This document shows, piece after piece, positions 2,854 to 58,618 of a stretch of 64,000 nucleotides of DNA (positions are counted from its first letter, which is position 1; each line of letters begins with the position of its first letter). The stretch lies in the IMG/VR virus record IMGVR_UViG_3300037258_000514, positions 32,001-96,000 of that record; one strand, written 5' to 3'. Made by a program: the position numbers and the translations under genes. The notes under the pieces were generated by a model. That model worked only from the letters and a program-made list of their open reading frames with translations, had not been told where the DNA came from and made no database searches. The stretch is from a virus.

Positions 2854-4190
2854 TGTCAATTCGTTTTGTTGAATCCGGCGGACAATACCATCTTAACTCT
2901 GGAGTGGGAGTTGCAGGAGTATGGGGATCCGCTTCTAGTAACGGCATTGTTAGTAATGCTATTGCTAGGAATGGTAGTACTTATGCTTATGGGCAGAATA
3001 GTAACTTAAAAACTCCCAATCTTGGAGGCGGTTCAGGATATAATGGCATGGTTGCTGGATTTGCGCTTTATTCTCCAACGATTACAAACAATCAACAACT
3101 AATTGTCTTTTTAGATAATTCGAATGCAAATCAATGCGATGTTAGAATGAATGGCTCCGGCCAGCTTTTCTTCACAAGAAATGGAACAACGATAGGAAGC
3201 ACTAGTACAAGCGTTTTAACTGCAAATACCTGGAGTTATATAGAATTTAAAGCTTCATTTAGTATAACGGGAACAGGCAGTTGTGAAGTTAGAGTAAATG
3301 GAATAGTATTTGTATCCTCTTCGAGTTTGACAAATGCTACTACAACAGCGAAAGGGTTTGGTGTTCAATTTGCTACAGAAAATGCAGCAAATGCAGCTGC
3401 TATGGATTTTTATGTACTCGACACTGACTCAAGTAGCGGTGGCGGTTCAAATCCAAATAATACGTATTTAGGTGATATAACAGTTGCAGAAATTTATCCG
3501 AACGGCGCTGGAGTTCATTCGGATTGGTCGCAAGCTACAAACAATGGCGGAGCAGGTTCTCCTCCTCCGTTTGCTTTGTCATCATGTAATAATACATCAG
3601 GCGGCACAACTGTTTATAACAGAACAACAACTGCAACAGGAGAAGCTACCAATGCCTACCAAGGCTACTACTTTATTGTATCAGGATTTGTCACACATAG
3701 CGCACAGAATAATGGGACATTTTTATGTGATTTATCATCAACTACAACAATAACGTTATCGAATCCGAATGGGATAGCCGAAACTGTTTCTGCATCGGCA
3801 GCTTTCCAAGCTATTACGCAATGCGGTATCCATGGCGGTATTGTAGACGGCTATCAACTTGGCGCTGTTGGAACGCGTAATAATGGTGATGCTACATTTA
3901 TACTAGACAGTTCTTCAGGCGATATAAATGATTTTGCTCATCAAACCCTACCAGGAATCGGTACAATTTATGGTGTAGTTCATGTTTCTCTAGCCCGGGA
4001 TGATGCTGGCGGCGGAGCAACAATGAATCAAGTTTGTATTTCAAATGCGACTACTGAAACATCGACAGCTATTTCTCTTGGAGCTTCGTACCAGTACTAT
4101 CAAGACATTATCGAACTAGATCCTCATACATCAGCAACATGGACTGGTTCAAATTATAATGCGGCTACATTCGGTCCAAAGAAAACATAA
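2853..4190 (+). CDS. putative virion structural protein with a ConA/LamG-like beta domain
   Basis: TAATG coupling to the tail gene; 'LTANTWSYIEFK...CEVRVNG...DFYVLD' and 'DPHTSATWT' motifs. Confidence 0.6.
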   Translation: MSIRFVESGGQYHLNSGVGVAGVWGSASSNGIVSNAIARNGSTYAYGQNSNLKTPNLGGGSGYNGMVAGFALYSPTITNNQQLIVFLDNSNANQCDVRMNGSGQLFFTRNGTTIGSTSTSVLTANTWSYIEFKASFSITGTGSCEVRVNGIVFVSSSSLTNATTTAKGFGVQFATENAANAAAMDFYVLDTDSSSGGGSNPNNTYLGDITVAEIYPNGAGVHSDWSQATNNGGAGSPPPFALSSCNNTSGGTTVYNRTTTATGEATNAYQGYYFIVSGFVTHSAQNNGTFLCDLSSTTTITLSNPNGIAETVSASAAFQAITQCGIHGGIVDGYQLGAVGTRNNGDATFILDSSSGDINDFAHQTLPGIGTIYGVVHVSLARDDAGGGATMNQVCISNATTETSTAISLGASYQYYQDIIELDPHTSATWTGSNYNAATFGPKKT

Positions 4191-8302: not shown

Positions 8303-8740
8303 ATGCTAACAAACGTAGCAGCAGAGCGGCAAAAGAAGACACGATCCGACAGATTAGCTCGTGTAAAAGATCTTCTTCTAACGGGAGCTTCTAACGCTGT
8401 TATTTCAGAAGAACTACATGCAACTGAAAGAACAGTTAAAGCTTACATGCACTCTTTATTTACAATATACAATATCACAGGTAAATGCAAAAGAGTAAAG
8501 TTAGCCGTAAGATTAATTGACGATGTAGAAAAAGAACAGACAAATTTAAATATGACAAAGCTAGAGAAACTAATAATAAATCTTGTTGTAGAAGGAAAAA
8601 TTAATCGACAGATTAGCGAAGAACTCCATTTATCAGAAAATATGGTAAAAAATTATCTCCGCACTATATATGATAAAACAGGAATGGGTTGCAGAACAGA
8701 GTTAGCACTCTGGGCAAAATCAAAAAGTTTCGTTGCTTAG
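8303..8740 (+). CDS. tandem LuxR-type HTH regulator
   Basis: Two copies of 'G..N..ISEELH..E..VK.Y...IY.K.G...R.ELA'. Confidence 0.85.
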   Translation: MLTNVAAERQKKTRSDRLARVKDLLLTGASNAVISEELHATERTVKAYMHSLFTIYNITGKCKRVKLAVRLIDDVEKEQTNLNMTKLEKLIINLVVEGKINRQISEELHLSENMVKNYLRTIYDKTGMGCRTELALWAKSKSFVA

Positions 8741-8756
8741 GGAGGCAACGCTTGAA

Positions 8757-8800
8757 GGGCTACAAACTGCTCCTGGAAGGGTTTGTAGCCCATTTTTATT
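8757..8800 (+). terminator. rho-independent terminator
   Basis: gggctacaaac...gtttgtagccc followed by atttttatt. Confidence 0.8.
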
Positions 8801-8812
8801 TTAAAGAAAAGC

Positions 8813-8842
8813 TTGACATTGGACCCTCAATTTTTATATTAT
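8813..8842 (+). promoter_or_regulatory. sigma70-type promoter predicting a leaderless transcript from the ATG at 8849
   Basis: TTGACA (8813-8818), 18 nt, TATTAT (8837-8842), 6 nt, ATG. Confidence 0.75.
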
Positions 8843-8848
8843 TACGCT

Positions 8849-9328
8849 ATGACATAGATGAATCAGAACGCCCCGAATCCTGCCGATAAATACGTGTATC
8901 TCTTCGTCCGCCAAGATCTACCAATTCAACACCAAATTGTTCAATCCAATCACGCCACTCATATGATGGCTTCGATTCGCCCGGAAGAGTGCGTGCCCAA
9001 TATCGTACTTATTGGTGTGCCCGACTTAAACGCTCTTCTTCGTGTGGCGCAGAAGCTTAGAGCTAATCAAATTCCTCACTACGAGTGGGTCGAACCAGAT
9101 TTTGATTTAGGTTTTACTTCAATTGCTACTGCTCCGATTACTGGAGAGAAGCGTCAAGTTTTGAAGAACTATAGACTTTATTCCCCTGGAACCGTTGCGG
9201 TAAACGGCGTCGCTTGTATAGACCAGCCAATCCGCGCAGCTTGTCTCTTAACTGAGGACAGGGGAGCCAGTGCCCGAGTAGCTCAACAGCAAGAGCAGCC
9301 CGGTCTAAACGGGATGGCTGAAGGTTAA
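8849..9328 (+). CDS. Pth2-like peptidyl-tRNA hydrolase with an in-frame amber at codon 3 (ATG ACA TAG ATG)
   Basis: 'YLFVRQDL....QIVQSNHA', 'IVLIGV', 'EPD...GFTSIATAP' match phage Pth2-fold proteins; C-terminus runs into tRNA-like elements. Confidence 0.75.
9182..9269 (+). ncRNA. degenerate tRNA-like RNA 1
   Basis: Acceptor TCCCCTG/CAGGGGA + G + CCA; D-like stem CCGTT/AACGG; weak T arm. Confidence 0.55.
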
Positions 9329-9347
9329 AGTCCTTCCTTGGGCACCA
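9272..9347 (+). tRNA. atypical tRNA with CUA (amber) anticodon
   Basis: 76-nt cloverleaf, GCCCGAG/CTTGGGC-A-CCA; loop GT-CTA-AA with CTA at nt 34-36; non-canonical D loop and T loop (TTAAAGT). Confidence 0.8.
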
Positions 9348-9350
9348 TAT

Positions 9351-9400
9351 AGGGCGGGCTAGCGCGCTAGCTAGGGGCTTCAGTGCCTCCCGCCCTACCA
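9351..9400 (+). ncRNA. 50-nt tRNA mimic (acceptor + T arm + one short hairpin, CCA end)
   Basis: AGGGCGG/CCGCCCT-A-CCA; T-like GGGGC-TTCAGT-GCCTC; palindromic GCTAGCGCGCTAGC. Confidence 0.65.
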
Positions 9401-9405
9401 GATAT

Positions 9406-9486
9406 GCCGCTGTAGCTCAGATGGGCTGTATCCAGAGCAGCTTCCTTTTAGGGAGCAGGTCGGTGGTTCGATTCCATCCAGCGGCT
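9406..9486 (+). tRNA. atypical tRNA, anticodon UUU (Lys-like), expanded D loop, no encoded CCA
   Basis: GCCGCTG/CAGCGGC; GCTTC-CT-TTT-AG-GGAGC; GGTTCGATTCC. Confidence 0.7.
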
Positions 9487-9489
9487 CTC

Positions 9490-9530
9490 TTTAAAATCGT
9501 GCGTCGGTTCGAACCCGACATGGCGCTCCA
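9490..9530 (+). pseudogene. orphan tRNA 3' half
   Basis: GTCGG-TTCGAAC-CCGAC-ATGGCGC-T-CCA with no matching 5' acceptor strand. Confidence 0.65.
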
Positions 9531-9567
9531 CTTCTTAACTACACCGTGTTTAAGACATATCCACTCA

Positions 9568-10974
9568 TCATCCATTTTCACTCCCTTGCTGCAGTTGATT
9601 TGCCAGTTCCATTGTCATCGCAGTAGAATCCAAACAAAACTGTCCTATCCTGTAGTTCTGTGAAATTAGTGCTGTAAATCCATCCTCTGAATCTCTTCCA
9701 GCAGCAGCGTAAATTCTAGCTAACCCCAAACGCTTTTCCTCAGGAGTTTGACTATACGTTATAACGTTATCCGCTGTACCTATTTTCGACCAATCTTCTG
9801 CAATATGTTTCTTTCCCACAAGATTAGCTTCGTCAGACTCTTTATTACCTTGACTAGCTGTTACAAGTGCTTTATCTCTACTAACAGCAATTCCTCTAAG
9901 TTCCTTGTAGAGTCTACCTGTATCAATACGAAGAATCGAAGAATCAATCCTCATTAAATCCGCATAGTCAACGATGATGATATCTGGATCAAAGGGAATC
10001 TCATGTCCGGCGCCACGCTTAAGAGAATCAAGATACAAGCATAACTGCTCAGTTGATAACATCCCGGGCGGATATTCCTTTATTAGAAATGGAGGAAAAC
10101 TATTTGCCATTGCTAGTAACTTACGACTAACTTCTTTTCTCTTTGCAATGACAGAGTCTCTAATAATATCACGAAAACTAAGTACAACTCCACCTTCCCC
10201 GTCTCTTTGAAAGTAGGGAGTACGTACTTCTTGCGCCTCGTCTTTTGTTAAACTAAACAAAGCTTGAATATAACGTTTTGCTGTCTTCTCTTCGCTTAAT
10301 TCAAGTGTTAGATGAAGTACTTTATGATGATGTTGTATCGCTGCTTTTCCCACGTCTGTTAGCCACCAAGACTTTCCCCTCTTAGCAGCCGCGATGATAA
10401 ACATTAGTGTCTTACGTTCAGGTCTGATCCCCTTTCTATCAAATACTTCTATTCCTGATGAGAAAAATTCATGTTCTTCATTCTTATCCAGAAATCTAAA
10501 TGCTTGTCCAGGATCGAATAACTGTATCCCTTTAGATCCTTCTGTTTGTATTGATACTTGTTTGTAGAGAGCTTCTTTTGCTTGTTCGAGCTCGCCTTGA
10601 TCAACTAAATCTGTTGCTGTTTCAAGTGTTTTCTGTAGCTGCTGAATAGCGATGAAGTGATCGAGTTGTTCAATAATAAACTGCGGTTGGATTAATATGG
10701 ATTGCTTACGAAGTAAATCTATCTCTTGTTTTAAAACACGTCCTTCATCTCCGCGACGAAGTTCGCTCTCGAGTAAATACTCCAACTGCATACCGGGGGC
10801 GATGGAATACTTTTCGATATATGCAAGCGATGTCTTTGCTATATCTTGTGTTTGTTTGTTTGTAAAAAGAGAATTATCGCGTATTCTTAATGCAACCGTA
10901 GCTGCGTGTTCTGCACTAAATGCCAAAAGGCAGAGTACTGCTTCTTCGAGAGCAGCATTAGATATTTTGGTCAT
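9568..10974 (-). CDS. DnaB-like replicative helicase
   Basis: Walker A 'AAAKRGKS', 'LTLELSE', 'IIVDYADLM', 'TASQGN'. Confidence 0.9.
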   Translation of the reverse strand: MTKISNAALEEAVLCLLAFSAEHAATVALRIRDNSLFTNKQTQDIAKTSLAYIEKYSIAPGMQLEYLLESELRRGDEGRVLKQEIDLLRKQSILIQPQFIIEQLDHFIAIQQLQKTLETATDLVDQGELEQAKEALYKQVSIQTEGSKGIQLFDPGQAFRFLDKNEEHEFFSSGIEVFDRKGIRPERKTLMFIIAAAKRGKSWWLTDVGKAAIQHHHKVLHLTLELSEEKTAKRYIQALFSLTKDEAQEVRTPYFQRDGEGGVVLSFRDIIRDSVIAKRKEVSRKLLAMANSFPPFLIKEYPPGMLSTEQLCLYLDSLKRGAGHEIPFDPDIIIVDYADLMRIDSSILRIDTGRLYKELRGIAVSRDKALVTASQGNKESDEANLVGKKHIAEDWSKIGTADNVITYSQTPEEKRLGLARIYAAAGRDSEDGFTALISQNYRIGQFCLDSTAMTMELANQLQQGSENG

Positions 10975-11171: not shown

Positions 11172-12326
11172 TCATTCTAGCTCCTTTGGTAAAACTAATA
11201 GCCCACTGTTTGTATAAACTAAGGAATACATTGTAGTTGATGTTAGTTCAAATGTTGCAGAGCACTTTCTTGTTTCCTCAACACAACATTTTACTAAGTG
11301 CACTCCTGTTCCTGTAAGTTGTTTTGGACCGACATGCTCAACAAGAAATTTAGCGATATTTTCAGCTGTAGGATTAAATGGAGTAATTACAACAGTTTTA
11401 TCAAGAGCCTTAAATGTTTTACTCCAAGGATCTTTCTTCCATATTAAAAATCTATGATCCCAGTTTGTTTCTAGCCATTGGCATAGAAGTGTGTTAATTA
11501 CTCCAAAATCAATTACTCTTCCTATTGAATCTAGAGAAGAAGCAACGCATGTAAAGTGTATTCTATAATTATGTCCATGAGCGTGGGAGCAAGCCCCTTC
11601 GTGTCCATATACTCTATGACCTGAAGAGAAATCGTGATAACGAGTAGCTGTAATTAAACTGTTATGAATTTTCTTAGCTATCCATAAGGGAATATCATGC
11701 TCCCAAAGTATTTCGACTTCCCATCCCTTTGCTTTGATAAAGCTAAGTCTTTGTTTTTCGTATGAAATACTTTTCTCTAAAACTTGTTTATCTACAATTT
11801 TATCAAATCCACATATCGAGCAGTTATGCCAAAAACATCCATTAACTTCGAGAATTTTCTTCTCATTTAGTGAGGCAAAATCTACTTGGTATCTTCCGAT
11901 ATGATATTGCCTTTTCCATCCCTGAAGATATTTCGCAACTAAATCTTCTACTTTTGATGTTTTTCTTCTGCCAACTTCAGGAGAATGAAAAATCCAATGT
12001 GCACCATTTTTTAGTGCTGTTGAAATCTTCTTAGCTATTTCAGGATCTTTAGCTATATTCTTCTCGCCATGCTGATATCCTACTTTAGGCATAGAAGTTC
12101 CGTAAATACCTAAGTATGTTTTTCCTTTTGTTCCGTGTCCTTGTTTATAAACAGGTCCGGATTTTACTTCGTGCGACAATCTTATAATTTTTGTTCCGCA
12201 TCCACAGGAACATTCTACTTCTATGGGTGTTAAGCATAAATTGCATATAAACGATTTAATATCGTTAGCTAGAAAACGGTCCTCGCAGTATTTGCAACTA
12301 CGCTCTTTCGGTGTAGTTAAACGCAT
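11172..12326 (-). CDS. queD: QueD (6-carboxytetrahydropterin synthase) with an N-terminal Vsr/DUF559-like endonuclease fusion
   Basis: C-terminal 'RYHDFSSGHRV...HGHNY...VIDFG...DHRFL...NPTAENIA..ET'; N-terminal CSCGCG and 'VDF...LEVNGCFWH...ILWEHD'. Confidence 0.85.
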   Translation of the reverse strand: MRLTTPKERSCKYCEDRFLANDIKSFICNLCLTPIEVECSCGCGTKIIRLSHEVKSGPVYKQGHGTKGKTYLGIYGTSMPKVGYQHGEKNIAKDPEIAKKISTALKNGAHWIFHSPEVGRRKTSKVEDLVAKYLQGWKRQYHIGRYQVDFASLNEKKILEVNGCFWHNCSICGFDKIVDKQVLEKSISYEKQRLSFIKAKGWEVEILWEHDIPLWIAKKIHNSLITATRYHDFSSGHRVYGHEGACSHAHGHNYRIHFTCVASSLDSIGRVIDFGVINTLLCQWLETNWDHRFLIWKKDPWSKTFKALDKTVVITPFNPTAENIAKFLVEHVGPKQLTGTGVHLVKCCVEETRKCSATFELTSTTMYSLVYTNSGLLVLPKELE

Positions 12327-48993: not shown

Positions 48994-49069
48994 TGGTGTC
49001 CCCGCTGGGATTCAAACCCAGATTTCCGGTTTCGTAGACCAGCGCCTTGTTCAATTGGACTACGGGGAC
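48994..49069 (-). tRNA. tRNA-Arg(ACG)
   Basis: Cloverleaf, loop CT-ACG-AA, CCA. Confidence 0.92.
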
Positions 49070-49480
49070 GTTTACTTTAATAAGTTTGGCATTGTCTCTT
49101 TGTAGTTATCAACTGTAACTAAATTACCATTCGATGCAACAAGTATTGGGAATCCCTTGTTAGTATCGCATTCAAAAGCTATACCGCATCCAGGACAATG
49201 TTTAATCCAAGGATAGGCGATGATCTGAAACGTTTTACAGTTTGAACACCGCATTCGTAGAGCTGTTACTTCAAAATGGGGTTCATTTATTATTTGTAAA
49301 TTTGCCGCGTGCGCCTACCTTCCAATCAATTGCCTGCTGGTGATCTAACGTTACGCAGTCTGCTACACTGTCGTAGACGGCGATTAATCCGCTTAGATCA
49401 GTCATGTTAAGCTCTTCTTTAACCTGGTCAAATGTAAGACGTTTTTCTGAGTCAAGAACAATGTATATTAGCATAAGTTT

Positions 49481-49556
49481 TGGTGCTAGCACTCGGATTC
49501 AAACCGAGATCTATTACTTAGGAGGTAATTGTCCTCTTCAATTGGACGATGCCAGC
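49481..49556 (-). tRNA. tRNA-Arg(CCT)
   Basis: Loop CT-CCT-AA, CCA. Confidence 0.92.
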
Positions 49557-49888
49557 TTTTCTTTATTTGCAGCCTGAAAACTTTTTTCGCGTTCTTCTTT
49601 ACAATGAGCGCATCCCGCGCATTCGATGTCGGCAATATCAAACTGTAAAAGTCTTTGTGGTTTGCCTTTAAATGTTTTGCAAAACTCTTGTACTACGGCT
49701 TGTGTTGAGTAATGCTGAGCTTCTTTCCAAGCTTCCCAGCGCTCCTCAAGATAGTTGTCAAGATAGCTGCCATGTTCCGTGCGCTGAAGTCCCTGTAACG
49801 GATGGACCCATCCGTTAAGAACCGCACGCTCTTCAAACTGTTCTCTCTGCGTCATTGTATTTTGTCTGCACAATCCACAAGATCGCAT
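49538..49888 (-). CDS. hypothetical protein, stop inside tRNA-Arg(CCT)
   Basis: ORF track; TGA lies in the D loop. Confidence 0.6.
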   Translation of the reverse strand: MRSCGLCRQNTMTQREQFEERAVLNGWVHPLQGLQRTEHGSYLDNYLEERWEAWKEAQHYSTQAVVQEFCKTFKGKPQRLLQFDIADIECAGCAHCKEEREKSFQAANKEKLASSN

Positions 49889-50259
49889 AGGATAGCTTTC
49901 ACAAAATCTTTGCCCATGCGTTCAGCATCAATTTCTACTTTGCCATCACTTCTTGTATGGAAAGTAATTTGTCCAAAACCGATTCCAGGTACGGACCAGT
50001 TAAGTTCAACCCACTGTCCACCATGGAATGTATGTTCCTTTCCTGCACTATCAATTCCGATTGTATCAGGACGATAGCCTACCGATCCAATTTTAACAAA
50101 TGAGGCGTGGACATTTCCTTTTTCTACTTCTTCGATCTTAACAGTTCCAATATTGTTTAGATCTGCTCCCTTTGGGAGTATAACAGATGCGGCTGTTGAT
50201 GCAAGTTTTTCTTTAATTTCTACTTCAGTTAAAGGAGCGGGTATGTGTTTTTTAATCAT
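49852..50259 (-). CDS. hypothetical protein
   Basis: ORF track. Confidence 0.55.
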   Translation of the reverse strand: MIKKHIPAPLTEVEIKEKLASTAASVILPKGADLNNIGTVKIEEVEKGNVHASFVKIGSVGYRPDTIGIDSAGKEHTFHGGQWVELNWSVPGIGFGQITFHTRSDGKVEIDAERMGKDFVKAILCDLVDCADKIQ

Positions 50260-50284
50260 TGGATTTTATCTAAACTCGGTAAAA

Positions 50285-50359
50285 TGGAGGAGCTAGCCGG
50301 ATTCGAACCGACGTTCACGGCTTAGAAGGCCATGTCCTGTCCTATTGGATGATAGCCCC
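50285..50359 (-). tRNA. tRNA-Arg(TCT)
   Basis: Loop CT-TCT-AA, CCA. Confidence 0.9.
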
Positions 50360-50383
50360 GATCTTATATAATTACCTGTAATT

Positions 50384-50458
50384 TGGTAGGGCCAGCGGGA
50401 GTTGAACCCGCATCCCGGGATTGAGAAACCCGTCGCCTAACCGTTAGCAGATGGCCCC
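50384..50458 (-). tRNA. tRNA-Glu(CTC)
   Basis: Loop TT-CTC-AA, CCA. Confidence 0.88.
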
Positions 50459-50826
50459 ACATAGCGTTTGTAAGCAGCATCCATTACAAAAGTTATATTC
50501 ATTTTGCCTACGGGATTCATTGAGTGAACTAAGTAGTTTTTCGGAAGTTGTCCTTGTTCAATTAACCACTTAGCACAATCGTATCCCGTTTTCTCCTGAA
50601 AAATTTCGTAAGGAATTTTAACTTCATTTAGTTTTTTATCAATCTCTGCATATGCAACAACATCGCAATAGTGTTGGTAGTGTTCGGTTCCAAGATCGTG
50701 GTCGAAACTGATTACGTCCGGTACGCCGTGAAGCTCGATGTAGGCAATAAATTCTTCGTATGATCGAACCACGTCCCAAGTAAAATCAGGTGGAAGTCTA
50801 CTATCATCTAAAAATAGCTTTCTCAT
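50437..50826 (-). CDS. cyclic-phosphate-processing receiver-domain protein
   Basis: 'LFLDD.R', 'ISFDHDLG', 'TGYDCAKWL', 'HSMNPVG'. Confidence 0.85.
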   Translation of the reverse strand: MRKLFLDDSRLPPDFTWDVVRSYEEFIAYIELHGVPDVISFDHDLGTEHYQHYCDVVAYAEIDKKLNEVKIPYEIFQEKTGYDCAKWLIEQGQLPKNYLVHSMNPVGKMNITFVMDAAYKRYVGPSANG

Positions 50827-51152
50827 TTCAACATCCTCTCATATTGTTGCGTTTGTTTATCATATTGTTGCGTTATTTTACGCAGTTGATGAATATGAAT
50901 TATTTCGAACGTTATTCTTACGATCATTAAAATTGCAATTAAAATAAGAAAGCGAAAGTGGTGATTAGACCTTTTCATTCAACACTCCCCAACTCGATCC
51001 TACGGCATAAGTGGGGAAACCGCATTCTTTTAAGTTAGAGCTTACCCATGCCGCGATTTCTTCATTTGTCTTTCCGTGCATATGTGCTGCTGCTTTAATT
51101 GCAAATTCGAAACACAGATCAACGAGTTTTTGTTTTTCGTTTATCATAAATT

Positions 51153-51230
51153 TGGTGGGGGCCGTGGGATTCGAACCCACTACCTTCCGCTTAAAAGGCG
51201 GTAGCTGCAATCCTTATGAGCTTCGCCCCC
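51153..51230 (-). tRNA. tRNA-Lys(TTT)
   Basis: Loop CT-TTT-AA, CCA. Confidence 0.88.
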
Positions 51231-51286
51231 ATCTAAGATGTGTTAAGTATTTCTACAGCTACAAAACGTTTCATTTATTCTCCTTT

Positions 51287-51826
51287 CTAAATATATACTG
51301 TCTTCATATATTGTTCAAATCGCATTGCACTCAATCTTATGGCGTAAGCATAAGCCTCGTCTTGCTCTTTTGTAATCGTAAGTTTTCCATTCTTATCACG
51401 CGGTAGATGTTGCATGTAAAACTTTATTCCACCTTCCATCGCATTCCTAACTCCTGGTTGGCGAACATAAACTTTATACTTCTTATCGCTCGGTTCAATT
51501 TCAACCACAGATTGATAGGAAGCATCAGGATCTGCACTTATACATCTGTTAATTAAAGCAAATAGATCGTCAGGATGTAACGAACCGCAAAAACTACACA
51601 CACGATTTCCATTTAATTTAAACTTATGCCATCTATCCAATCCTTTTGTGTGTTCCCAAGAACCGATTCCCTGCATTCTACGTCCGCACGTTATAGGCTC
51701 AGATAGCGTATCAACCAAGCTTAAGTACGTAGGTTCTTCTTCTATTATTCCACTACATCCAACAGTCTGACATTTTTCCCCGAGAACATCAGTTGAGCGT
51801 CCTATTAAGCATTTTTTGCAATACAT
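51287..51826 (-). CDS. Cys-rich hypothetical protein
   Basis: 'CSFCGSLHP', 'KFY.QH'. Confidence 0.6.
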   Translation of the reverse strand: MYCKKCLIGRSTDVLGEKCQTVGCSGIIEEEPTYLSLVDTLSEPITCGRRMQGIGSWEHTKGLDRWHKFKLNGNRVCSFCGSLHPDDLFALINRCISADPDASYQSVVEIEPSDKKYKVYVRQPGVRNAMEGGIKFYMQHLPRDKNGKLTITKEQDEAYAYAIRLSAMRFEQYMKTVYI

Positions 51827-51842
51827 ATGGCTCCTAAGAAGT

Positions 51843-51920
51843 TGGTGGACCGCCCGGGAATTGAACCCGGAACCTTCCGCTTAAGAGGCGGTTGCTCTCA
51901 GCCTATTGAGCTAGCGGTCC
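51843..51920 (-). tRNA. tRNA-Lys(CTT)
   Basis: Loop CT-CTT-AA, CCA. Confidence 0.93.
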
Positions 51921-52615
51921 CCTTTTTAAAATTAACTAAAATTCTTGTTGTTTTTGCATTAAAAGTGTTTTTCTATTACAACGTGCTATCCTCCCTTCCA
52001 TTTCAGATCAACACTTAGTGATAGGGCTGTTGAAGCCAACTCTGGCATCACTGTCGTACGCTGTTGAAAATCTAAGCCTTTTTAGGTTCAGGCTCTTCGA
52101 ATCTTTTTACTTCCGCTTTCGGATCCATTTTGTGAACTACAGGCTCCTTGAAAGCATAGACTTCGTGGAAGAATTTCTCCAAGAATTCTGCTGTTACTTC
52201 ACCTGCAGTTTCAAATTCAACAAGAATACGTTTCCTGTCGCCTACGATGTTTTCCGATTTGAGAATTTTAACATTACTTATACGTGCCATTTCTTCTCCT
52301 ATTGAGGTATATCTGAAAGTTGACCGATAGCGTTTTTAATTGTATTAAGTGCGTTCAAGTCATTACACGTTATACCAGAAATAGCTTTCATTGCTCGTTC
52401 CCTCATACTAACTGCGCCTCCAGTATAACCAGCCTGGAAGATTTGAAATTGTGTTGCGCTCTTGTTATCGTTTAATAGCTTGTTAAAAGCATCGTTCAGT
52501 TTATCAGCCATTGTTCTCCTTTGTTTTTCATTCTCTTGTCCCTGTTCCCAACTTGTAGCAGCGCGCATTCCTTCTTGTACACCTAGGTACAAGCCTTCAT
52601 TTGTACTCCTGAAAT

Positions 52616-52690
52616 TGGTAGGCGTAGAGAGAATCGAACTCCCGTAGGACGGTAATCGGCCCGTCTGCTCTGCCCCTGAGCTATACGCCT
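52616..52690 (-). tRNA. tRNA-Ile(GAT)-like, 8-nt anticodon loop
   Basis: AGGCGTA acceptor; GACGG-GCCGATTA-CCGTC. Confidence 0.75.
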
Positions 52691-52848
52691 AAAAAAACTT
52701 ACTTTGTGCAGAACTTCGCATGTTTGGTTCTTTGTTTTTTTGAACGAAATCTATTCCCGCAGAAGCCACAAAGTTGTTTCAGCATGTGACCAGTGCCTGA
52801 TGAGCCTTCACGTACTGCTGTTGGTTTTTTCATTTATTCTCCTAAAAT

Positions 52849-52924
52849 TGGTGCACCCGGAAGGACTCGAACCTCCGATAACTGTCTTGTAAGGGCAGCG
52901 TTTTAGCCGCTAAACTACGGGTGC
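52849..52924 (-). tRNA. tRNA-Val(TAC)
   Basis: Loop CT-TAC-AA, CCA. Confidence 0.92.
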
Positions 52925-53001
52925 ATCTAGGTGCTCACCGCACCTAGACTTTGAACTTAAACATCCCCCAAGGCTTTTATACCTTTATGTTTAAGCTAAA
53001 A

Positions 53002-53096
53002 TGGTAGTGGACCGGGGAATCGAACCCGCGCCGTCGCTCTAATCTGGAGCTCTCCGGTGAGTATAAGGCACCGCCGCACATCCAGTGCTGTCCACC
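53002..53096 (-). tRNA. atypical tRNA, TAT anticodon, short D arm, long variable arm
   Basis: GGTGGAC/GTCCACT-A-CCA; CGGTG-CCTTATACT-CACCG; GGTTCGATTCC. Confidence 0.7.
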
Positions 53097-53801
53097 ATTA
53101 ACTTTCAAAACTTTTCAAATTTGCGTAAACTTCTGCGTCATGCAAACCTTCTGTTGTAAAAGGAAATCTTGCAATCGGACTAAAATCTTTTTCCAAGAAG
53201 TGCGGATCAAGTTTAATTCTGTCTTTAATACGCTCTTTCGTAGAACGATAAACTAAAATCTTCCTGCCATCGTAAGGAGTACAGCCTAAATATCTTGCCT
53301 GTACCACACATATACAGGATAAGCTCTTGATCTCTTTAATGTTGATTATAGAAAAGAGTTCAGGATTAGGATTCGGTGGATCAGTTTTGCCTGCACTACT
53401 ACCAAGTAAATTTATTCCCATTTTAGATATTCTCAAAAATTGGTATTCGCAAATCACATTTAGGATTCATCGAGTACTTTGTTCGGTACCAGTAAACGTA
53501 TGAATGCCATTTCGGATTGTAGTAAGCTTCTTTCTCTTCTTTGTTAAGTAACTTCATAAGAAGCTCAACGTTATCTACTATAATCTCGTCAGGTTGATCT
53601 TGCCAATCAGCCCACAATTTTTGTAATCCATCTTCTATCTCTAGAATTAGATCAGGATATTTTTCCACTAAGTGGAGTTCGACTCCACGTAAGTCTAAAC
53701 GATGTCGCGTTGTTCTGCGCGTATTGTAGTAGTTCTCTTGCTCAGGCGTTAGTTTTGCAATTCCGCACACGTGGCACCCCGGTGATCCGCACATAAAGTT
53801 T

Positions 53802-53875
53802 TGGTGGCTCGTGACAGAATCGAACTGTCGTAGGTTGCTTATGAGACAACTGAACTACCACTGTTCTAACGAGCC
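53802..53875 (-). tRNA. tRNA-Met/Ile2(CAT)
   Basis: Loop CT-CAT-AA, CCA. Confidence 0.9.
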
Positions 53876-53884
53876 TCTAAATTT

Positions 53885-53962
53885 TGGCTGTGGGAGAGGG
53901 ATTCGAACCCCCGACCGTCACCTTAACAGGGTGCCGCTCTTACCGGACTGAGCTATCCCACA
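53885..53962 (-). tRNA. tRNA-Asn(GTT)
   Basis: Loop CT-GTT-AA, G73, CCA. Confidence 0.92.
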
Positions 53963-54579
53963 AAGTTTTTTGCTACTGCGATCCATTGTTGCGGATCGTT
54001 AAACATTTCTTTCCACTTAATACGCAAAACTTTCCAACCTTTGCTAATTAAGTAAGTATCTTTTCTCTGATCTCTTTCTTTAACTTCAATGTCTTCGTGT
54101 TGCTGGCCATCAATTTCAATTGCAAGCATTTTATTCTTCCAGGCGAAGTCAATTTTAAAAACTCCGGTCTGTAAGTTAAAATCATAATATTTATCTGTAA
54201 ATTCGTTTTCTATAACTTTCATGAAAAATTGTTCAGGATAAGATGGTTCGTTATTCCATTGACAAAATCCAATGTTATGTGCACGACCTTCGGCATGAGC
54301 CACTTTCATTTTTTCTGATAGTAGTTGTTTAGTTTCTTTTGTTTGAACTCTTCCTTGCCTGCCGCGTAATTTATTACTGCAACGTGCCGCGCTTAATGCT
54401 ACTCGAGGATCTTGTTTCGTTAATCCTTTATTCCAAGGAATGTTTCCTTTTGCTGATCCTGCTTTAAATGTTATTCCTGCCCCGTGCATTCTCCAGACGT
54501 GTGAAGCAAGTCCTCTTTCAGGTAATTCTTTTTCGCAATGATTGCATATTACTCGTGTTTTTGAAAGCGTATTATACAT
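53953..54579 (-). CDS. C2H2 + DUF559-like homing endonuclease; stop inside tRNA-Asn
   Basis: 'C.HC.....GL.SH...H', 'PWNKGL', 'IDFAW', 'IEIDG.QH'. Confidence 0.85.
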   Translation of the reverse strand: MYNTLSKTRVICNHCEKELPERGLASHVWRMHGAGITFKAGSAKGNIPWNKGLTKQDPRVALSAARCSNKLRGRQGRVQTKETKQLLSEKMKVAHAEGRAHNIGFCQWNNEPSYPEQFFMKVIENEFTDKYYDFNLQTGVFKIDFAWKNKMLAIEIDGQQHEDIEVKERDQRKDTYLISKGWKVLRIKWKEMFNDPQQWIAVAKNFVG

Positions 54580-54585
54580 AAAAAC

Positions 54586-54698
54586 TTCTGCAACAGTTAT
54601 CCGCCTTTTACTAGCCACTAGTAGAACTATTGTATTGGAAGTCCGCGGTGCTCCCCTCATTCCTACTAGTGATAGCGAGCTATGAATCTGTTGCAGAA
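54586..54698 (-). ncRNA. unassigned long hairpin RNA (strand inferred)
   Basis: TTCTGCAACAG/CTGTTGCAGAA closing stem and CACTAGTAG/CTACTAGTG inner stem. Confidence 0.55.
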
Positions 54699-54703
54699 AG
54701 TTG

Positions 54704-54946
54704 TTATTCGACTAAGCTAAAGTCGACGTAAAAGCGTTTCTTAGCGTGTAATGCATCCACAAAAATCTTAAATGCATCCGGATTTGTAATCATCATTTGT
54801 ATTGAGCCTGAAGGTGTCCATTTCGACCAATCTGTGTTGTCACCTTCTTTATCATTTCCGGCAGTTAGTTTAACGTTGCCTGAACCTTCCGGAGATTCAT
54901 ATAACTCAACGCCTGTTACTCTAAACTTCGCTCTTACTTGTGCCAT
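54704..54946 (-). CDS. conserved small phage protein
   Basis: 'VRAKF', 'WSKWTPSG.I...ITNP.A', 'YVDF'. Confidence 0.7.
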   Translation of the reverse strand: MAQVRAKFRVTGVELYESPEGSGNVKLTAGNDKEGDNTDWSKWTPSGSIQMMITNPDAFKIFVDALHAKKRFYVDFSLVE

Positions 54947-55013
54947 TTTATTTCTCGAAGCCGTATAGCTTTATCGGCTAAGAATTTTCTACGGTACTAC
55001 TCTCCGTAAGAAC

Positions 55014-55088
55014 TGGTTGCGGGGGTTGGATTTGCACCAACGTCTGCAGGTTATGAGCCTACCGTATGACCTACGCTACCACCCCGCG
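55014..55088 (-). tRNA. tRNA-fMet-like (CAT)
   Basis: CGCGGGG start with C1:A72 mismatch; loop CT-CAT-AA. Confidence 0.85.
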
Positions 55089-55557
55089 TCAAACTAATCT
55101 TGTTCCCGCGTTTCCATCCAAGTTCGTAAAACGAATTAAGTTCTGTTAGCCGAACTAACATTGTCTTCTTTTCGCTAACGTTGTAAATCCATCTTTTCCC
55201 GAAGTTTGGGTTTTGTTCTCCTAGTCTCCCATGTAACTGACGAGCTTTTTCTAATCCATGTTTTTCAACAGTTGCTTGCCATAAATTTTTTGTGACTGCT
55301 CCACAAGCAATTGCATCTTGCCTGTTCTCTGATGGTGTTCCCCAATACAAATGAAACGGATTATTGCATTTCTCATTGTGACAGGCATGACAAGCTTGTA
55401 TCCTATGACCTTTTGGAACAGTTGTATTAAGTATGTGTGCAAGCAATCCTCTGCATTGCTCGGAATTACATCCACGTTCAACGCAGAACTCATTTAGTTT
55501 GAGATGAGATTGTCGCTCACTTTTTGTAAGCAAAATATAGTCTTCAATCTTAATCAT
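55051..55557 (-). CDS. HNH/His-Cys endonuclease, paralog 1
   Basis: 'ACHACHN.KCNNPFHLYWGT.SEN..D'. Confidence 0.85.
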   Translation of the reverse strand: MIKIEDYILLTKSERQSHLKLNEFCVERGCNSEQCRGLLAHILNTTVPKGHRIQACHACHNEKCNNPFHLYWGTPSENRQDAIACGAVTKNLWQATVEKHGLEKARQLHGRLGEQNPNFGKRWIYNVSEKKTMLVRLTELNSFYELGWKRGNKISLTRGGSVGHTVGS

Positions 55558-56057
55558 GCTCCATCCCTGCGTGATACAACTAAACTTTTGTTTTTCTTTG
55601 CTTCGTTTTTCTTAAACTGTTCTCTTATTGCATTTGCAATATGAGGCAGCGCTGAAAGATCACGTCGACATTCTTCCAAAGAATAGCCAGCTTTCGCTGC
55701 TGCTGCGTCTGCTGTAAAACCTTGTATGTAACAAGTAACAAAATGATGCTCTTTCTTGTTCAACTTCTTCTCTTTTATTTTTCGTTGTTTACCTATTGCT
55801 AAGCAATCATCTACAAATTTGTTAAACTCTCCTTCACGAATTCCGTTGATAAGAGCATCGTATTTCTTGTTCGCTTCTTCATTCATCGCAGCTTGACTAT
55901 CTAAGAAAAGTCTCTGAAGATGAGGGGCCAAAGAAAGATGAAGATCTCTAACAGTTATTTTTAAATTTTGTATTTCAGTAAGTACTTGATCGAGCTTTAC
56001 TTTTTTTGGCTTTGCTTTTGTCTTTTTCTTCATATGGTAAGCATTTATATATACCAA
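55554..56057 (-). CDS. hypothetical protein with a TerS-like HTH
   Basis: 'HFV..Y......AAAAKAGYS'. Confidence 0.5.
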   Translation of the reverse strand: MVYINAYHMKKKTKAKPKKVKLDQVLTEIQNLKITVRDLHLSLAPHLQRLFLDSQAAMNEEANKKYDALINGIREGEFNKFVDDCLAIGKQRKIKEKKLNKKEHHFVTCYIQGFTADAAAAKAGYSLEECRRDLSALPHIANAIREQFKKNEAKKNKSLVVSRRDGA

Positions 56058-56062
56058 TTACT

Positions 56063-56372
56063 TGTGCCACGTATTCTGTTGACAGGGACGTGGCCTAACC
56101 CCGCTACTTAGCGAACTAAGCAGCAGCAGCTTGCGACATCCATGCGCCCTGAGGGATCATGAAAGGAGCAATCTGAGCAGTTTTGTCTGCATTTACAATT
56201 AGCTTCTCGTTACGGTGAGCAGCTATTTCCGGCGTCGCAAACAATCTACCTTACCTCCGTCGAATCTAATTCATCCCCGTAATTAGCGTCGAGAATGTTT
56301 AGTTGGTGGAGATGGCGGGGTACTGCCCCCCGCGTCCGTCGGTATAGCACATTGTTTGATATACGGCGCACT
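56063..56372 (-). ncRNA. ssrA: permuted two-piece tmRNA (outer ends approximate)
   Basis: Acceptor piece ...GACGCGGGGGGCAGTACCCCGCCATCTCCACCA (ends 56304) precedes GGGGATGAATTAGATTCGAC (starts 56278); tag ORF 56190..56116 ADKTAQIAPFMIPQGAWMSQAAAA*. Confidence 0.88.
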
Positions 56373-56375
56373 GTC

Positions 56376-56981
56376 TTAAAACTTTAATTTCCTACCTAAT
56401 TGCCAACCCTGTGTAAGATATAGTGCGGTTTCTTCTTTTGCAACAGCTTTTGACTTTTTCTCTTTTGTATTAAAGATCCAGTTTGTTCCAAATCTGTTAT
56501 TTTTGCTTCCCTGTTTTAACATACTCATTAATTCACACGAGCTTTGTTTATGTTTACTCCCCGTCCATTTTCTCTGACCGCGCAAGCTTGCACTCAATGC
56601 AAGTTGTCTGCGAACGTCTGTATTACTATCTAACCAGATACGTAATTTTACGTAAGCTCTTTTCCCTCCAAGAAGTCTATTAAATTTGTTTTGTTTCTCT
56701 ACCCACTCCCATCCGCCCATACCTCCGTTGTTAAGATTATAACATAACGGATTTTCTTTTTCTGCTTCAACAAGTCGAGCCTCGAGCGCAAACATATCTT
56801 CTGCATTGTCGAAATCTGCAAGCACTTCTTTACTAAAATTTACTATGCCATGCTTCTTTATTGCGTACCAGAAAAGTACTCCTGATCCTAAGTAACTATC
56901 ATCAGGCTTTTCTGTTTTATGCGCTCCGATGTAAAACTTGTTATTCACTTTACATGTCGTTTTATAAACTGTATAGTGCAT
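56376..56981 (-). CDS. GIY-YIG (Seg-like) homing endonuclease
   Basis: 'VYKTT...N.KFYIG.H.T...DD.YLGSG', 'CYNL..GG'. Confidence 0.88.
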   Translation of the reverse strand: MHYTVYKTTCKVNNKFYIGAHKTEKPDDSYLGSGVLFWYAIKKHGIVNFSKEVLADFDNAEDMFALEARLVEAEKENPLCYNLNNGGMGGWEWVEKQNKFNRLLGGKRAYVKLRIWLDSNTDVRRQLALSASLRGQRKWTGSKHKQSSCELMSMLKQGSKNNRFGTNWIFNTKEKKSKAVAKEETALYLTQGWQLGRKLKF

Positions 56982-57124
56982 AGCAACAAACTTGTTTTAA
57001 ATACAGGTAGTCCCACGAACAAGTACTTCGCAAGATTTTAATCCGTTAGTACTCTCGCCTTACTACCTGCATTAGGGCGACCAATAAACCAGCCGCCTCC
57101 ACCATCCAGTCGGACCCTAATATA

Positions 57125-57141
57125 CGCTAGGCCACTCCCCG
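57125..57141 (-). pseudogene. tRNA-Pro-like 5' fragment
   Basis: CGGGGAG-TG-GCCTAGCG, then abrupt loss of tRNA structure. Confidence 0.35.
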
Positions 57142-57543
57142 AAACTTTAATCTCCTGTTACTTCCTCTTCTTTTTTTTCGGGCTCTTTAAACTCTGGAGT
57201 AAACTGTGTTTCGTTGTGTTTTAGGTCTGCAATAATTGCAGGCGTTGCATCTGAGTGTTTTACGGGAAGCATTTTACCACACCGTATGCAAGGCGATCCG
57301 GGTTGTTGATCCGGGGCATCATGAGAGCAAGTATCAAGATCAGCCATAGTAATTCTCCTAGTTAAAACTACCACCAGTCCAGTTTTTAATGTAAAAAAGA
57401 ATTGACCTAAAAACTTTTGAAAGAAGAAAGTAATAAAGTAAATACATTACTACGCCATCGTAGAAATAAGCTGAGAGCAGTGCTGCTGTTATATCTGATG
57501 TTGTTCGTTCTAAGAACGTTAATTTTTCCATAGTAGTAAAAAA

Positions 57544-57619
57544 TGGTGGACACTCCCGGAATCGAACCGGATTTTCTAGCTCTTCAGGCAAGCACATTGA
57601 CCTTCAATGTTAAGTGTCC
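57544..57619 (-). tRNA. tRNA-Phe(GAA)
   Basis: Loop CT-GAA-GA, CCA. Confidence 0.88.
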
Positions 57620-57864
57620 ATTTAACTCGCTATAACTTCTTTGACTACATGTCCTATGTGAGCAATACCTTTCGGTACACCACATTCGTTGCACATCCCG
57701 TATTTCTCGGGAAGCGGCTTGTTTGGATTGCAACAGTCGTGTCCACAGCGTTTACAAAATGGACGTTGAAGTCCGTTGTATGTTCGACACTTACAACATC
57801 CCCATCCCGGTAATAGATCTCTTACGTCGAGTAGTAACTGACATTGTTCTGTGTTCATAAAATT

Positions 57865-57943
57865 TGGTGCCCTAGGTGGGATTCGAACCCACAAAATCTT
57901 CTGGGTCTAAGCCAGACGCCTTTTCCGATTTGACCACTAGGGC
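57865..57943 (-). tRNA. tRNA-Leu(TAG)
   Basis: Loop CT-TAG-AC, short variable region, CCA. Confidence 0.88.
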
Positions 57944-58399
57944 CTCTTTACTATAAACTCCTTGTTTATGTAGGAGTTTAATAGAATCTGATATTTTTAG
58001 ACACTGTTCTTCAGGTTTTGGCTTTCCTTTATTACCACAACCATTCGTGTTTCCTCTGTGAGCTTGTCTTATTCGTGAAGCTTCTTCGCCATACTTTGCA
58101 ACTGTGTACTGCCAAACTGTTTTGTTATTTCGTCCGCTAGATATAGCATCCATTCTGTTTTCTCTAGGCGTACCCCAGTACACGTGAAATGGATTGCTAC
58201 ATTCTCCATTATGGCAAGCGTGACAAAGTTGAATTTTGTTTCCTCTTGGAATTGATGTATCCAAAATATAAGCTAGTAAGCCTTTTGAATAAACAGAAAC
58301 CCATCCCTCACCGCCACGATAAACACAAGGTTCATTAAGTTTTAAATGACGTTGTCTCTCGGCTTGGGATAGTAGAATATATTCTTCTATTCTAATCAT
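57872..58399 (-). CDS. HNH/His-Cys endonuclease, paralog 2
   Basis: 'LCHACHNGECSNPFHVYWGT..EN..D'; start revised to MIRIEEYILL. Confidence 0.85.
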   Translation of the reverse strand: MIRIEEYILLSQAERQRHLKLNEPCVYRGGEGWVSVYSKGLLAYILDTSIPRGNKIQLCHACHNGECSNPFHVYWGTPRENRMDAISSGRNNKTVWQYTVAKYGEEASRIRQAHRGNTNGCGNKGKPKPEEQCLKISDSIKLLHKQGVYSKEALVVKSEKASGLDPEDFVGSNPT

Positions 58400-58405
58400 G
58401 CAGGC

Positions 58406-58434
58406 ATTATAAATTAATTTAACGTGTCTACCAA
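58406..58434 (-). promoter_or_regulatory. sigma70 promoter, leaderless HNH transcript
   Basis: TTGGTA-17-TATAAT-6-ATG. Confidence 0.65.
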
Positions 58435-58442
58435 GCATAAAT

Positions 58443-58520
58443 TGGTGCGCAGAGGGAGATTTGAACTCCCAAACAACTGATTCTCAACCAGTTAGGTATG
58501 CCTGTTCCCTTCATCTGCGC
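58443..58520 (-). tRNA. tRNA-Leu(GAG)
   Basis: Loop TT-GAG-AA, short variable region, CCA. Confidence 0.88.
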
Positions 58521-58527
58521 AAATTTG

Positions 58528-58616: not shown

Positions 58617-58618
58617 TA

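Follow-up and report, generated by a model that had tools for sequence, protein, structure and literature searches.

We analyzed a stretch of 64,000 nucleotides (nt) of viral DNA, referred to throughout as the window, which comprises positions 32001–96000 of a 176-kb IMG/VR virus record (IMGVR_UViG_3300037258_000514) estimated to be 86% complete. The subject of this report is a locus on the plus strand of the window, at 8813–9530, in which a gene for a protein with the PTH2 fold, that of the Pth2 peptidyl-tRNA hydrolases, is preceded by a start codon and an in-frame amber codon (hereafter, the amber gate) and is followed, with no intervening stop codon, by a tandem array of five tRNA-like elements that includes a tRNA with the anticodon CUA. 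The record originates from a soil metagenome and has a GC content of ~40%. ARAGORN identified 32 tRNAs in the whole record, and the genes around the locus are of phage type (a DnaB-like helicase, a QueD-like gene, and a LuxR-type regulator). The genome is jumbo-phage-like and uses the standard code: open reading frames (ORFs) of at least 100 amino acids (aa) span 92% of it, TAG terminates 36 of the 182 long ORFs (20% of stops), and fewer ORFs are joined when TAG is read as sense than when TGA or TAA is.

The PTH2-like protein has 49 relatives in a large protein set. The loci that we compared (denoted by L numbers) comprise 39 from IMG/VR, 80 from metagenomes, four short Logan/ENA contigs, and 11 from cultured phages, the metagenome scan for relatives having been made with a 16-sequence alignment as the query. 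A blastn search with 8700–9700 of the window gave no match among 50,697 phage records, and a sequencing-run lookup matched the stretch only to the soil DNA run from which it came and to no RNA run.

A PTH2-fold gene and an array of tRNA-like elements

The ORF following the gate extends from 8858 to 9328, of which 8858–9181 encode a domain of 108 aa that ends in ..NYRLY. The AlphaFold model of the protein has a predicted local distance difference test score (pLDDT) of 92.7, and the top 11 PDB matches returned by Foldseek are all of the Pth2/Bit1 type, with template-modeling (TM) scores of 0.67–0.74. Five of these structures, which represent human Bit1/PTRH2 and archaeal Pth2 (1q7s, 2zv3, 1wn2, 3erj, and 1xty), were matched with a probability of 1.0 and TM scores of 0.72–0.74. 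At the level of sequence, the gathering cut-off of the Pfam PTH2 family (PF01981) is not reached (16.8 vs. 23 bits), and 17 of 43 relatives match the same family below its threshold, the best with an E value of 0.0011. Residues conserved in the phage family are Q29, S30, H32, A33, P80, D81, G85, and T91. On the strength of the model and the alignment, the protein is best named a PTH2-fold protein, and its hydrolase activity should be regarded as putative.

Immediately downstream, five elements lie head to tail on the plus strand from 9182 to 9530, separated by spacers of 2–5 nt. A preliminary description, drawn from the letters of the window alone, had reported a tandem array of five aberrant tRNA-like RNAs here, and all five are indeed present. 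It had also remarked that the array is distant from the normal tRNAs and on the opposite strand; the main tRNA cluster, as mapped by ARAGORN, occupies 48994–63976 on the minus strand. Likewise borne out were its reading of the acceptor stems of elements 1–4 as paired (7 of 7 positions in each, with a single G:U in element 2) and its observations on the individual tRNAs that are given below. The Rfam gathering score for tRNA (RF00005, 29 bits) is reached by just two of the five, elements 2 and 4, and elements 1 and 3 have no Rfam match even at E values up to 10, nor were they called by ARAGORN.

Element 2 (9272–9347) is an amber suppressor tRNA with the anticodon CUA and an A-CCA end that was detected by ARAGORN and, at 54.6 bits, by Rfam. 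It begins 90 nt behind the end of the PTH2-fold domain, and no other CUA tRNA is present in the genome record. Its peculiarities, which are evident from the sequence and from the ARAGORN and Rfam results, are those listed earlier: an anticodon loop GUCUAAA with G at position 32, a D loop (AACAGCAA) without GG, and a T loop UUAAAGU. Across loci L002–L128, the CUA tRNAs fall into two classes: those that abut the ORF have non-canonical D and T loops (e.g., tgaaatc and tataagc) and a G or A discriminator, and a second copy, located 60–140 nt downstream of them, combines a canonical TTCRANT loop with the discriminator U. The window holds the first class only. In four loci (L007, L015 at 3502–3599, L052, and L080) we also observed tRNA-like genes of 98–106 nt behind the PTH2-like gene, which combine one acceptor stem, one D arm, and one T arm with two anticodon arms in series. 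The two arms carry either CUA twice or CUA and UUA, and this double-arm form is conserved in several diverged loci.

Element 4 (9406–9487; Rfam, 53.2 bits) is a tRNA with the anticodon UUU, an anticodon loop CUUUUAG, and a D loop of 16 nt, i.e., with 11 extra nt, an assignment made earlier and supported by the Rfam alignment. We rejected the “Trp” identity assigned by ARAGORN as a misreading caused by the long D loop. The 3′ end is T-CTC, so that CCA is not encoded. The tRNA body, long D loop included, recurs in one related locus (L041), there with an anticodon loop CAUCUAG and a T-CCA end, and long-D-loop tRNAs also occur in L053, L024, and L012. Element 4 probably represents a working, or recently working, tRNA of an oversized-D-loop lineage.

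Element 5 (9496–9530) consists of a T arm, a 3′ acceptor strand, and T-CCA, and scores 13.4 bits as a 5′-truncated tRNA match. As the earlier term “orphan 3′ half” implied, there is no matching 5′ half nearby, and no homologue was found among the loci compared. A split or permuted tRNA was considered and rejected, given that the required 5′ strand, GCGCCAT, occurs at chance frequency only, with no copy nearby. The element is probably a remnant, although it can also be drawn as a 4-plus-5 base pair (bp) hairpin with UCCA and may, alternatively, be a short hairpin-type minihelix.

The gene and the array are delimited on both sides. Upstream, a LuxR/GerE-type gene (8303–8740, with a GerE domain in its ORF) is ended by an intrinsic terminator-like hairpin with a T run (8779–8800, plus strand; stem at 8779–8791, then ATTTTTATTT), and downstream of the array the next gene converges from the opposite strand. 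Between the terminator and the gate lies a sigma-70-like promoter (8813–8842, plus strand), with TTGACA followed after 16 nt by TATATT or after 18 nt by TATTAT. Eleven of its 12 consensus positions match, which is a match to a sigma-70-like consensus only. The promoter match ends 7–9 nt 5′ of ATG 8849, placing the predicted transcription start at, or beside, the A of that codon. A messenger RNA (mRNA) beginning there would be leaderless, which would favor the first ATG as the start of translation.

The amber gate and its matching tRNA

The gate at 8849–8857 reads ATG-ACA-TAG, that is, a start codon, one sense codon, and an in-frame amber codon, and is followed directly by ATG 8858. The same arrangement, an in-frame TAG preceded by an ATG just upstream of the first β-strand, was found in 113 loci; about 12 others fell outside the thresholds that we set for a gate, three or four of them having one at a more upstream position. 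The spacing is exactly ATG-NNN-TAG in 69 of the 94 distinct gate sequences. In this set, TAG is followed by A in 58 cases, by G in 34, and by C in 2, but never by T (a purine in 92 of the 94). The codon after TAG is ATH in 47 and GTH in 31 (78 together), and the residues following the TAG are conserved across loci. Given that an ATG follows the TAG in only five of the 94 sequences, restart is no general option and read-through is needed in most loci. As for the other end of the gene, homologues with ordinary ends terminate at TAA (14) or TGA (7), and none does so at TAG.

The exceptions to this pattern fit a rule that links the gate to the anticodon. At locus L030, the gate is ATG-CAT-TGA, and a tRNA with the anticodon UCA lies 206 nt behind the ORF (locus part 2990–3585), which constitutes a natural joint swap of stop codon and anticodon. 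Two other loci (L032 and L105) have neither a gate nor a CUA tRNA.

The gate is also found in seven cultured jumbo phages (GAP32, CBB, Serratia phage BF, Yersinia phage fHe-Yen9-04, Salmonella phage Arash, Ralstonia phage RsoM2USA, and Acinetobacter phage ME3), where a Shine–Dalgarno sequence, ATG, one or two codons, and TAG precede the domain. Because the TAG is at codon 3 or 4, the PTH2-like gene has been missed in the records of these phages, or is called in truncated form from an internal start (GAP32, L129, 290231–290464; Arash, L132; L161–L165). In the Cronobacter phage GAP32, a CUA tRNA is located 2.8 kb downstream and is the best-scoring tRNA of that genome; in Arash, a CUA tRNA that is annotated as tRNA-Phe is located 1 kb downstream. 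Phage XacN1 has an ungated, N-terminally fused version of the gene.

Given the standard code of the genome, element 2, the CUA tRNA, most likely gates the neighboring gene. We consider the amber gate, which was not part of the preliminary description, most likely to be the central mechanism of the locus, and one that gives the CUA tRNA a concrete job. Suppressor tRNAs of standard-code jumbo phages have had no known target, and the papers on XacN1 and RsoM2USA could name none for their phage CUA tRNAs (PMC5852040, PMC8504454). A conserved amber codon in the neighboring gene would supply one.

Two families of mini tRNA-like RNAs and a stop-less gene end

Elements 1 and 3 belong to two families of mini RNAs, types A and B, respectively. 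Recurrent elements of 45–54 nt emerged behind the PTH2-like gene when the loci were scanned for the combination of acceptor stem, T-like arm, and N-CCA end. These were aligned with covariance models, since MAFFT alone misaligned them; model R2 describes type A (seven seed sequences, the window not among them) and model R1 describes type B (four seed sequences, the window among them).

The type A family is 52 nt long and is laid out as a 7-bp acceptor stem, GA, a 5-bp hairpin that is mostly GNRA-capped (GCAA or GAAA), a 4-bp stem with a 6-nt loop, one spacer nt, the 3′ acceptor strand, and N-CCA. It is positioned at the end of the PTH2-like ORF. Element 1 (9182–9269, 88 nt) matches model positions 1–52 of R2 at 37.9 bits (E value 2e-6), and other R2 matches include L077, L069, and L042. 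Its 7-bp closing stem (TCCCCTG/CAGGGGA) is followed by G-CCA, its 4-bp stem carries a 6-nt loop, and a 36-nt insertion replaces the hairpin tetraloop, leaving all three helices intact. The label “degenerate” that had been attached to this element does not hold, as it is a member of a defined 52-nt family with a 36-nt insertion.

Type B elements comprise a 7-bp acceptor stem, a 5-bp hairpin, a 5-bp T-like stem with a 6-nt UUSARU loop, and A-CCA, and are found behind the first tRNA or behind a mini A. Element 3 (9351–9400), previously noted as a 50-nt RNA with CCA and a palindromic hairpin, is present as described: it has a 7-bp acceptor stem, a CTAG-CGCG-CTAG hairpin, a 5-bp stem with the loop UUCAGU, and A-CCA, and it scores 75 bits with R1, of which it is a seed sequence. 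Members outside the seed are L017 (59 bits), L043 (45 bits), and L042 (41 bits), with weaker matches right behind the first CUA tRNA in L008, L011, L015, L052, L075, L079, L081, and L092. Mini elements were also seen in the clade of L030, which is linked to a transfer-messenger RNA (tmRNA).

In the 456 kb of related loci, R1 has 19 and R2 has 18 matches, all of which are on the strand of the gene and nearly all of which are 0–170 nt behind the ORF; in the 176-kb genome, searches with R1 and R2 found each mini once, at this locus. Such strict linkage agrees with the earlier suggestion that the RNAs are dedicated partners of the PTH2-like gene. The families keep their three helices across loci whose proteins are only 45–65% identical. 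Paired cells amount to 97.5% for type B and 96.1% for type A, compared with 66% and 61%, respectively, in shuffled alignments and 39–54% with slid partners, and most pairs have changed on both sides (15 of 17 in B and 13 of 16 in A). Because the underlying alignments were fitted to the models, pairing is inflated to some degree; the double changes, present in each of the three helices, are nonetheless real. Both elements are conserved family members, not decay products, and the compensatory changes across homologous loci uphold the initial argument for structural selection rather than decay. The minis represent two natural conserved families of mimics of the top half of tRNA in viruses that infect bacteria.

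Without an anticodon loop, the minis cannot decode and must therefore act through the acceptor or CCA end. Pair 3:70 is C:G or G:C in both types and never G:U, which makes an alanine identity unlikely, as alanyl-tRNA synthetase needs G3:U70. A search of 8700–9700 with the Rfam ribozyme families gave no match at E values up to 10, and no other non-tRNA family of Rfam matched elements 1, 3, or 5. Self-cleaving ribozymes of the kinds found next to phage tRNAs (theta/hepatitis delta virus-like, hammerhead, and others) were discarded as candidates; instead of a nested double pseudoknot, the conserved pairs make up a simple three-way junction that the terminal stem closes. Scanning IMG/VR with a DNA pattern for mini B produced four matches, and these were dismissed as chance occurrences in GC-rich coding DNA without a CCA end.

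The PTH2-fold domain and element 1 meet without a gap. The codon of the last conserved residue is 9179–9181, element 1 begins at the next base, 9182, and the first in-frame stop of the ORF is TAA 9326–9328, within the T loop of the CUA tRNA. Both the lack of a stop at the natural end of the ORF and the exact start of the RNA there had been recognized from the outset. ArfA, whose mRNA is cut by RNase III, and BrfA, whose gene has a terminator before its stop, are rescue factors made from non-stop mRNA; judged by its sequence, the phage gene, with no in-frame stop in 8858–9181 and an RNA from 9182, has the configuration expected of this type. In the clade of the window, defined as the closer relatives with an alignment score of ~270 or more, a tRNA or mini element starts 0–16 nt after the last domain codon in most loci with no stop between, and the RNA that abuts the gene varies from locus to locus (a CUA tRNA with odd D and T loops, Arg-UCU, mini A, or others). 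The junction looks like mitochondrial tRNA punctuation or ArfA-type control, here in a phage. At L043, the closest relative without a mini A, the position is taken by a 100-nt element (1234–1333) with a 14-bp closing stem and a z-score of −4.8. This element, shared with L044, starts 12 nt after the domain and encloses a TAA stop, and it is a possible RNase III-type site.

The genome also encodes a tmRNA. It is of the permuted, two-piece kind and is located at 56065–56420 on the minus strand, in the main tRNA cluster, where it was missed by ARAGORN and matched by two Rfam models (alpha_tmRNA, 77.8 bits; tmRNA_permuted, 76.4 bits). In many relatives, a tmRNA lies 1–2 kb upstream of the PTH2-like gene. 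Translated by hand starting at the aligned resume codon, the phage tmRNA would specify a tag of 24 aa that ends in ..SQAAAA and has TAG as its stop, with two further in-frame TAGs 4 and 7 codons beyond; among 15 related phage tmRNAs, the tag stop is TAA in 14 and TGA in one. If the hand-read frame is right, the phage amber suppressor could extend the degradation tag.

The main tRNA cluster contains several further features, all on the minus strand. Three are absent from the ARAGORN list: a 95-nt tRNA-like element with a perfect acceptor stem, the T loop TTCGAT(T), and A-CCA (53002–53096), which emerged from our own scan, and two elements with Rfam tRNA scores of 37 and 39 bits (55021–55085 and 60693–60767, respectively). 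An ARAGORN tRNA at 52616–52690 has an 8-nt anticodon loop with a four-base anticodon (cgat), and an Rfam match to CyVA-1 RNA (63343–63419; 53.1 bits, gathering score 41.4) is situated between tRNA genes. Elsewhere in the window, an ORF at 11172–12326 (minus strand) fuses a Vsr/DUF559-type endonuclease-like segment to a QueD-like 6-pyruvoyl-tetrahydropterin synthase domain, as judged by Pfam and PHROG.

Interpretation and relation to known systems

On balance, we favor the view that 8813–9530 is one transcription unit that constitutes a self-contained translation module. The promoter at 8813–8842 would drive a single transcript through 9530, and translation initiated at 8849 would meet UAG at codon 3, to be read by the CUA tRNA released from the same transcript. 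Full-length PTH2-like product would then be made in step with suppressor activity, the suppressor licensing its neighbor without global recoding. The array would be processed by RNase P at each 5′ end and trimmed to the encoded CCA, and release of the RNAs would leave an mRNA without a stop codon. The structural prerequisites of an RNase P-type signal are present in the minis, namely a stack of 7 plus 4–5 bp and N-CCA, and cleavage is predicted from these. The minis would mimic the part of tRNA that is read by RNase P, the CCA enzyme, EF-Tu, and Pth. They could act as handles for processing, setting the ends of both the mRNA and the suppressor tRNA, as ligands of proteins that bind tRNA ends, or in both ways, the first candidate partner being the PTH2-like protein itself.

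A bolder, joint reading, which we rate as improbable, is that the phage uses the unit, with a gate at either end, to sense the state of translation. The UAG would tie synthesis to the competition between the suppressor and release factor 1, the loss of the stop through processing would tie release of the protein to the load on trans-translation, and the CCA-ended minis would be the RNA partners of the protein, whether substrates, inhibitors, or guides. If so, the phage would make an enzyme of tRNA recycling or rescue exactly when its own read-through floods the cell with stalled ribosomes.

Several points weigh against the proposal of a translation module. The transcripts, their ends, and their processing are predicted from sequence alone. 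In this genome, ATG 8858 directly follows the TAG, so that termination and re-initiation may make this gate leaky, and the switch of gate and anticodon is known from one locus, L030. The Lys of the GKxxAQxxHA motif, together with the Asp and Thr of the DxGxT segment, are what we take to be the catalytic residues of Pth2; the site that aligns with this Lys is variable in the phage family and is H25 in the window, and hydrolase activity is for that reason not assured. The T-like arm of the minis has a 6-nt loop and a C:G pair where tRNAs have G53:C61, and recognition of the minis by RNase P or tRNA-binding proteins is an assumption. Finally, distant homologues end in ..YRLW, 1–13 further residues, and an ordinary stop, and the stop-less end, as a feature of one clade, could be a tolerated overlap and not a mechanism.

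The opposite view of the stop-less end, which we hold only tentatively, is that it is a deliberate non-stop design following the logic of ArfA and BrfA; this would add to the translation module rather than replace it. Ribosomes would stall at the RNase P-cut end of the mRNA with a complete PTH2-like chain, and trans-translation, including that by the phage tmRNA, would tag and remove the protein, which would accumulate only when rescue is exhausted and would then back up tRNA recycling or ribosome rescue. Such a design is consistent with the lack of a stop before the RNA in most close-clade loci, whichever RNA abuts the gene (a CUA tRNA of the first class, Arg-UCU, or mini A), and with the presence of tmRNA genes both in this phage and near the gene in many relatives. 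The 14-bp stem around the stop of L043 and L044 may, by analogy, recall the RNase III site that lies inside arfA. However, distant homologues with TAA or TGA stops often have a nearby tmRNA as well, so that there is no local link between the two features, and coupled translation could cross the RNA region before it is processed and end at TAA 9326. Moreover, tagging and its effect on the level of the protein are predictions, and we know of no Pth2-type enzyme that acts on ribosome-bound chains in bacteria.

Whether the minis do anything once released is the point at which a second alternative departs from the translation module. It treats them as pure punctuation with no function after release, i.e., as processing signals comparable to t-elements or mascRNA, through which RNase P would define the 3′ end of the mRNA and the ends of the suppressor tRNA. 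The placement of the elements accords well with such a role: mini A is always directly at the end of the ORF, mini B directly follows the first CUA tRNA or mini A, and the spacers are 2–5 nt. All elements present a 7-bp stem on a 4–5 bp stem with N-CCA, which is the minimal substrate of bacterial RNase P. Nevertheless, we are doubtful that this is the whole explanation. A normal tRNA would serve in the same slot, and does so in sister loci; several loci have two or three minis in a row; and conservation extends to the extra hairpin, which in type A has a GNRA cap, and to the encoded CCA, neither of which a cleavage signal needs.

A role in anti-defense, in which the minis and aberrant tRNAs would shield translation from host toxins that attack tRNA, seems unlikely to us. 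The minis might soak up enzymes that act on the acceptor or CCA end, such as nucleotidyltransferases of the MenT/AbiE type or GNAT toxins that acetylate tRNA, and the odd-looped tRNAs might replace the targets of anticodon nucleases or escape them. Lys-UUU and Arg-UCU are classic targets of such nucleases. Related arrays hold the anticodons UUU, UCU, UAU, AUA, and AUU and show odd loops, oversized D loops, and doubled anticodon arms, and element 4 and its L041 copy share one tRNA body in which the anticodon arm alone differs. Pth is also reported to reverse the acetylation of tRNA by TacT (PMC9241777), and could thereby clear the products of such GNAT toxins. Against all this, no defense or anti-defense gene was tied to the locus, the amber gate is left unexplained, and the idea is a proposal from sequence. 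The preliminary description had gone further in suggesting decoys for anticodon nucleases, which fails for the two minis: lacking an anticodon loop, they could bait only end-directed toxins or other factors that act on the acceptor, T arm, or CCA end.

We regard it as very unlikely that elements 1, 3, and 5 are broken leftovers of tandem tRNA duplications and not functional RNAs. Some signs of decay do exist in the array, as element 5 has neither a 5′ half nor a homologue and scores weakly, element 4 has lost its encoded CCA, and element 1 has an insertion relative to its family. Yet in both families, A and B, the three helices have survived many double changes, and position, strand, and CCA end are conserved; the insertion in element 1 is confined to a hairpin loop. 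Lastly, we rejected a genome-wide reassignment of TAG (code 15), under which the gene would be one of many with an in-frame TAG, as having next to no chance of being correct: suppressor tRNAs are typical of recoded phages, and gene callers applied TAG = Q to the contigs of two relatives, but the coverage by standard-code ORFs, the smaller number of ORFs joined by a sense TAG than by a sense TGA or TAA, and the regular use of TAG as a terminator leave no sign of TAG as sense across many genes.

The components of the locus are of known kinds, tRNA-like RNAs and suppressor tRNAs among them, and their arrangement appears to be unpublished; a full-text search of the literature found no description of the gate, the mini RNAs, or the combined layout. 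Among known systems, the phage amber suppressor tRNAs of crAss-like and Lak phages, and those of XacN1 and RsoM2USA, share with this locus a CUA tRNA in a tRNA-rich phage. In contrast to the recoded phages, there is no genome-wide recoding here, and in contrast to the accounts of XacN1 and RsoM2USA, a conserved target adjoins the tRNA, a target which is also present, unannotated, in RsoM2USA. The bar minigenes of phage lambda, which consist of AUG-AUA-stop and load Pth with dipeptidyl-tRNA, are similar in being phage ORFs of two codons and a stop with a functional tie to peptidyl-tRNA hydrolase. They differ in that the mini-ORF here forms the opening of a hydrolase-like gene, in the same frame, and in that the stop is UAG, matched by a phage suppressor tRNA. 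Synthetic feed-forward loops have reportedly been built in which expression of a gene with an early amber codon requires that a co-regulated suppressor tRNA be made; those are engineered, whereas the gate described here is natural and on one transcript.

For the mini RNAs, the closest likenesses are the armless mitochondrial tRNAs of nematodes and mites and the synthetic minihelices, with which they share a length of 45–54 nt, an acceptor stem on a T-like stem, and CCA. Armless mitochondrial tRNAs keep an anticodon arm and decode, unlike the minis, which have no anticodon loop, and synthetic minihelices are single hairpins, whereas the minis are three-way junctions with an extra hairpin. The t-elements of plant mitochondria and mascRNA at the 3′ end of MALAT1 are tRNA-like signals for 3′-end processing, and mascRNA ends in CCA and has no working anticodon. 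Here, too, a tRNA-like fold stands behind a longer transcript, and one RNase P cut would make both ends. The phage elements differ in their bacterial/viral setting, in that CCA is encoded and the upstream RNA is a stop-less ORF, and in forming two conserved families alongside real tRNAs.

The protein shares with Pth2/PTRH2 (Bit1; PF01981) the fold and part of the motif (VQSxHA and the D..G..T..P segment). It differs in being shorter (108 aa), in scoring below the Pfam threshold, and in not keeping the motif Lys, and its gene is amber-gated and, in the clade of the window, stop-less. In common with ArfA and BrfA, the locus has a small protein of the translation-rescue type whose mRNA would end before a stop, in a genome that itself encodes a tmRNA. 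Unlike in those systems, the truncating step would be tRNA processing, and the protein has a Pth2 fold and is not a recruiter of release factor 2 (RF2).

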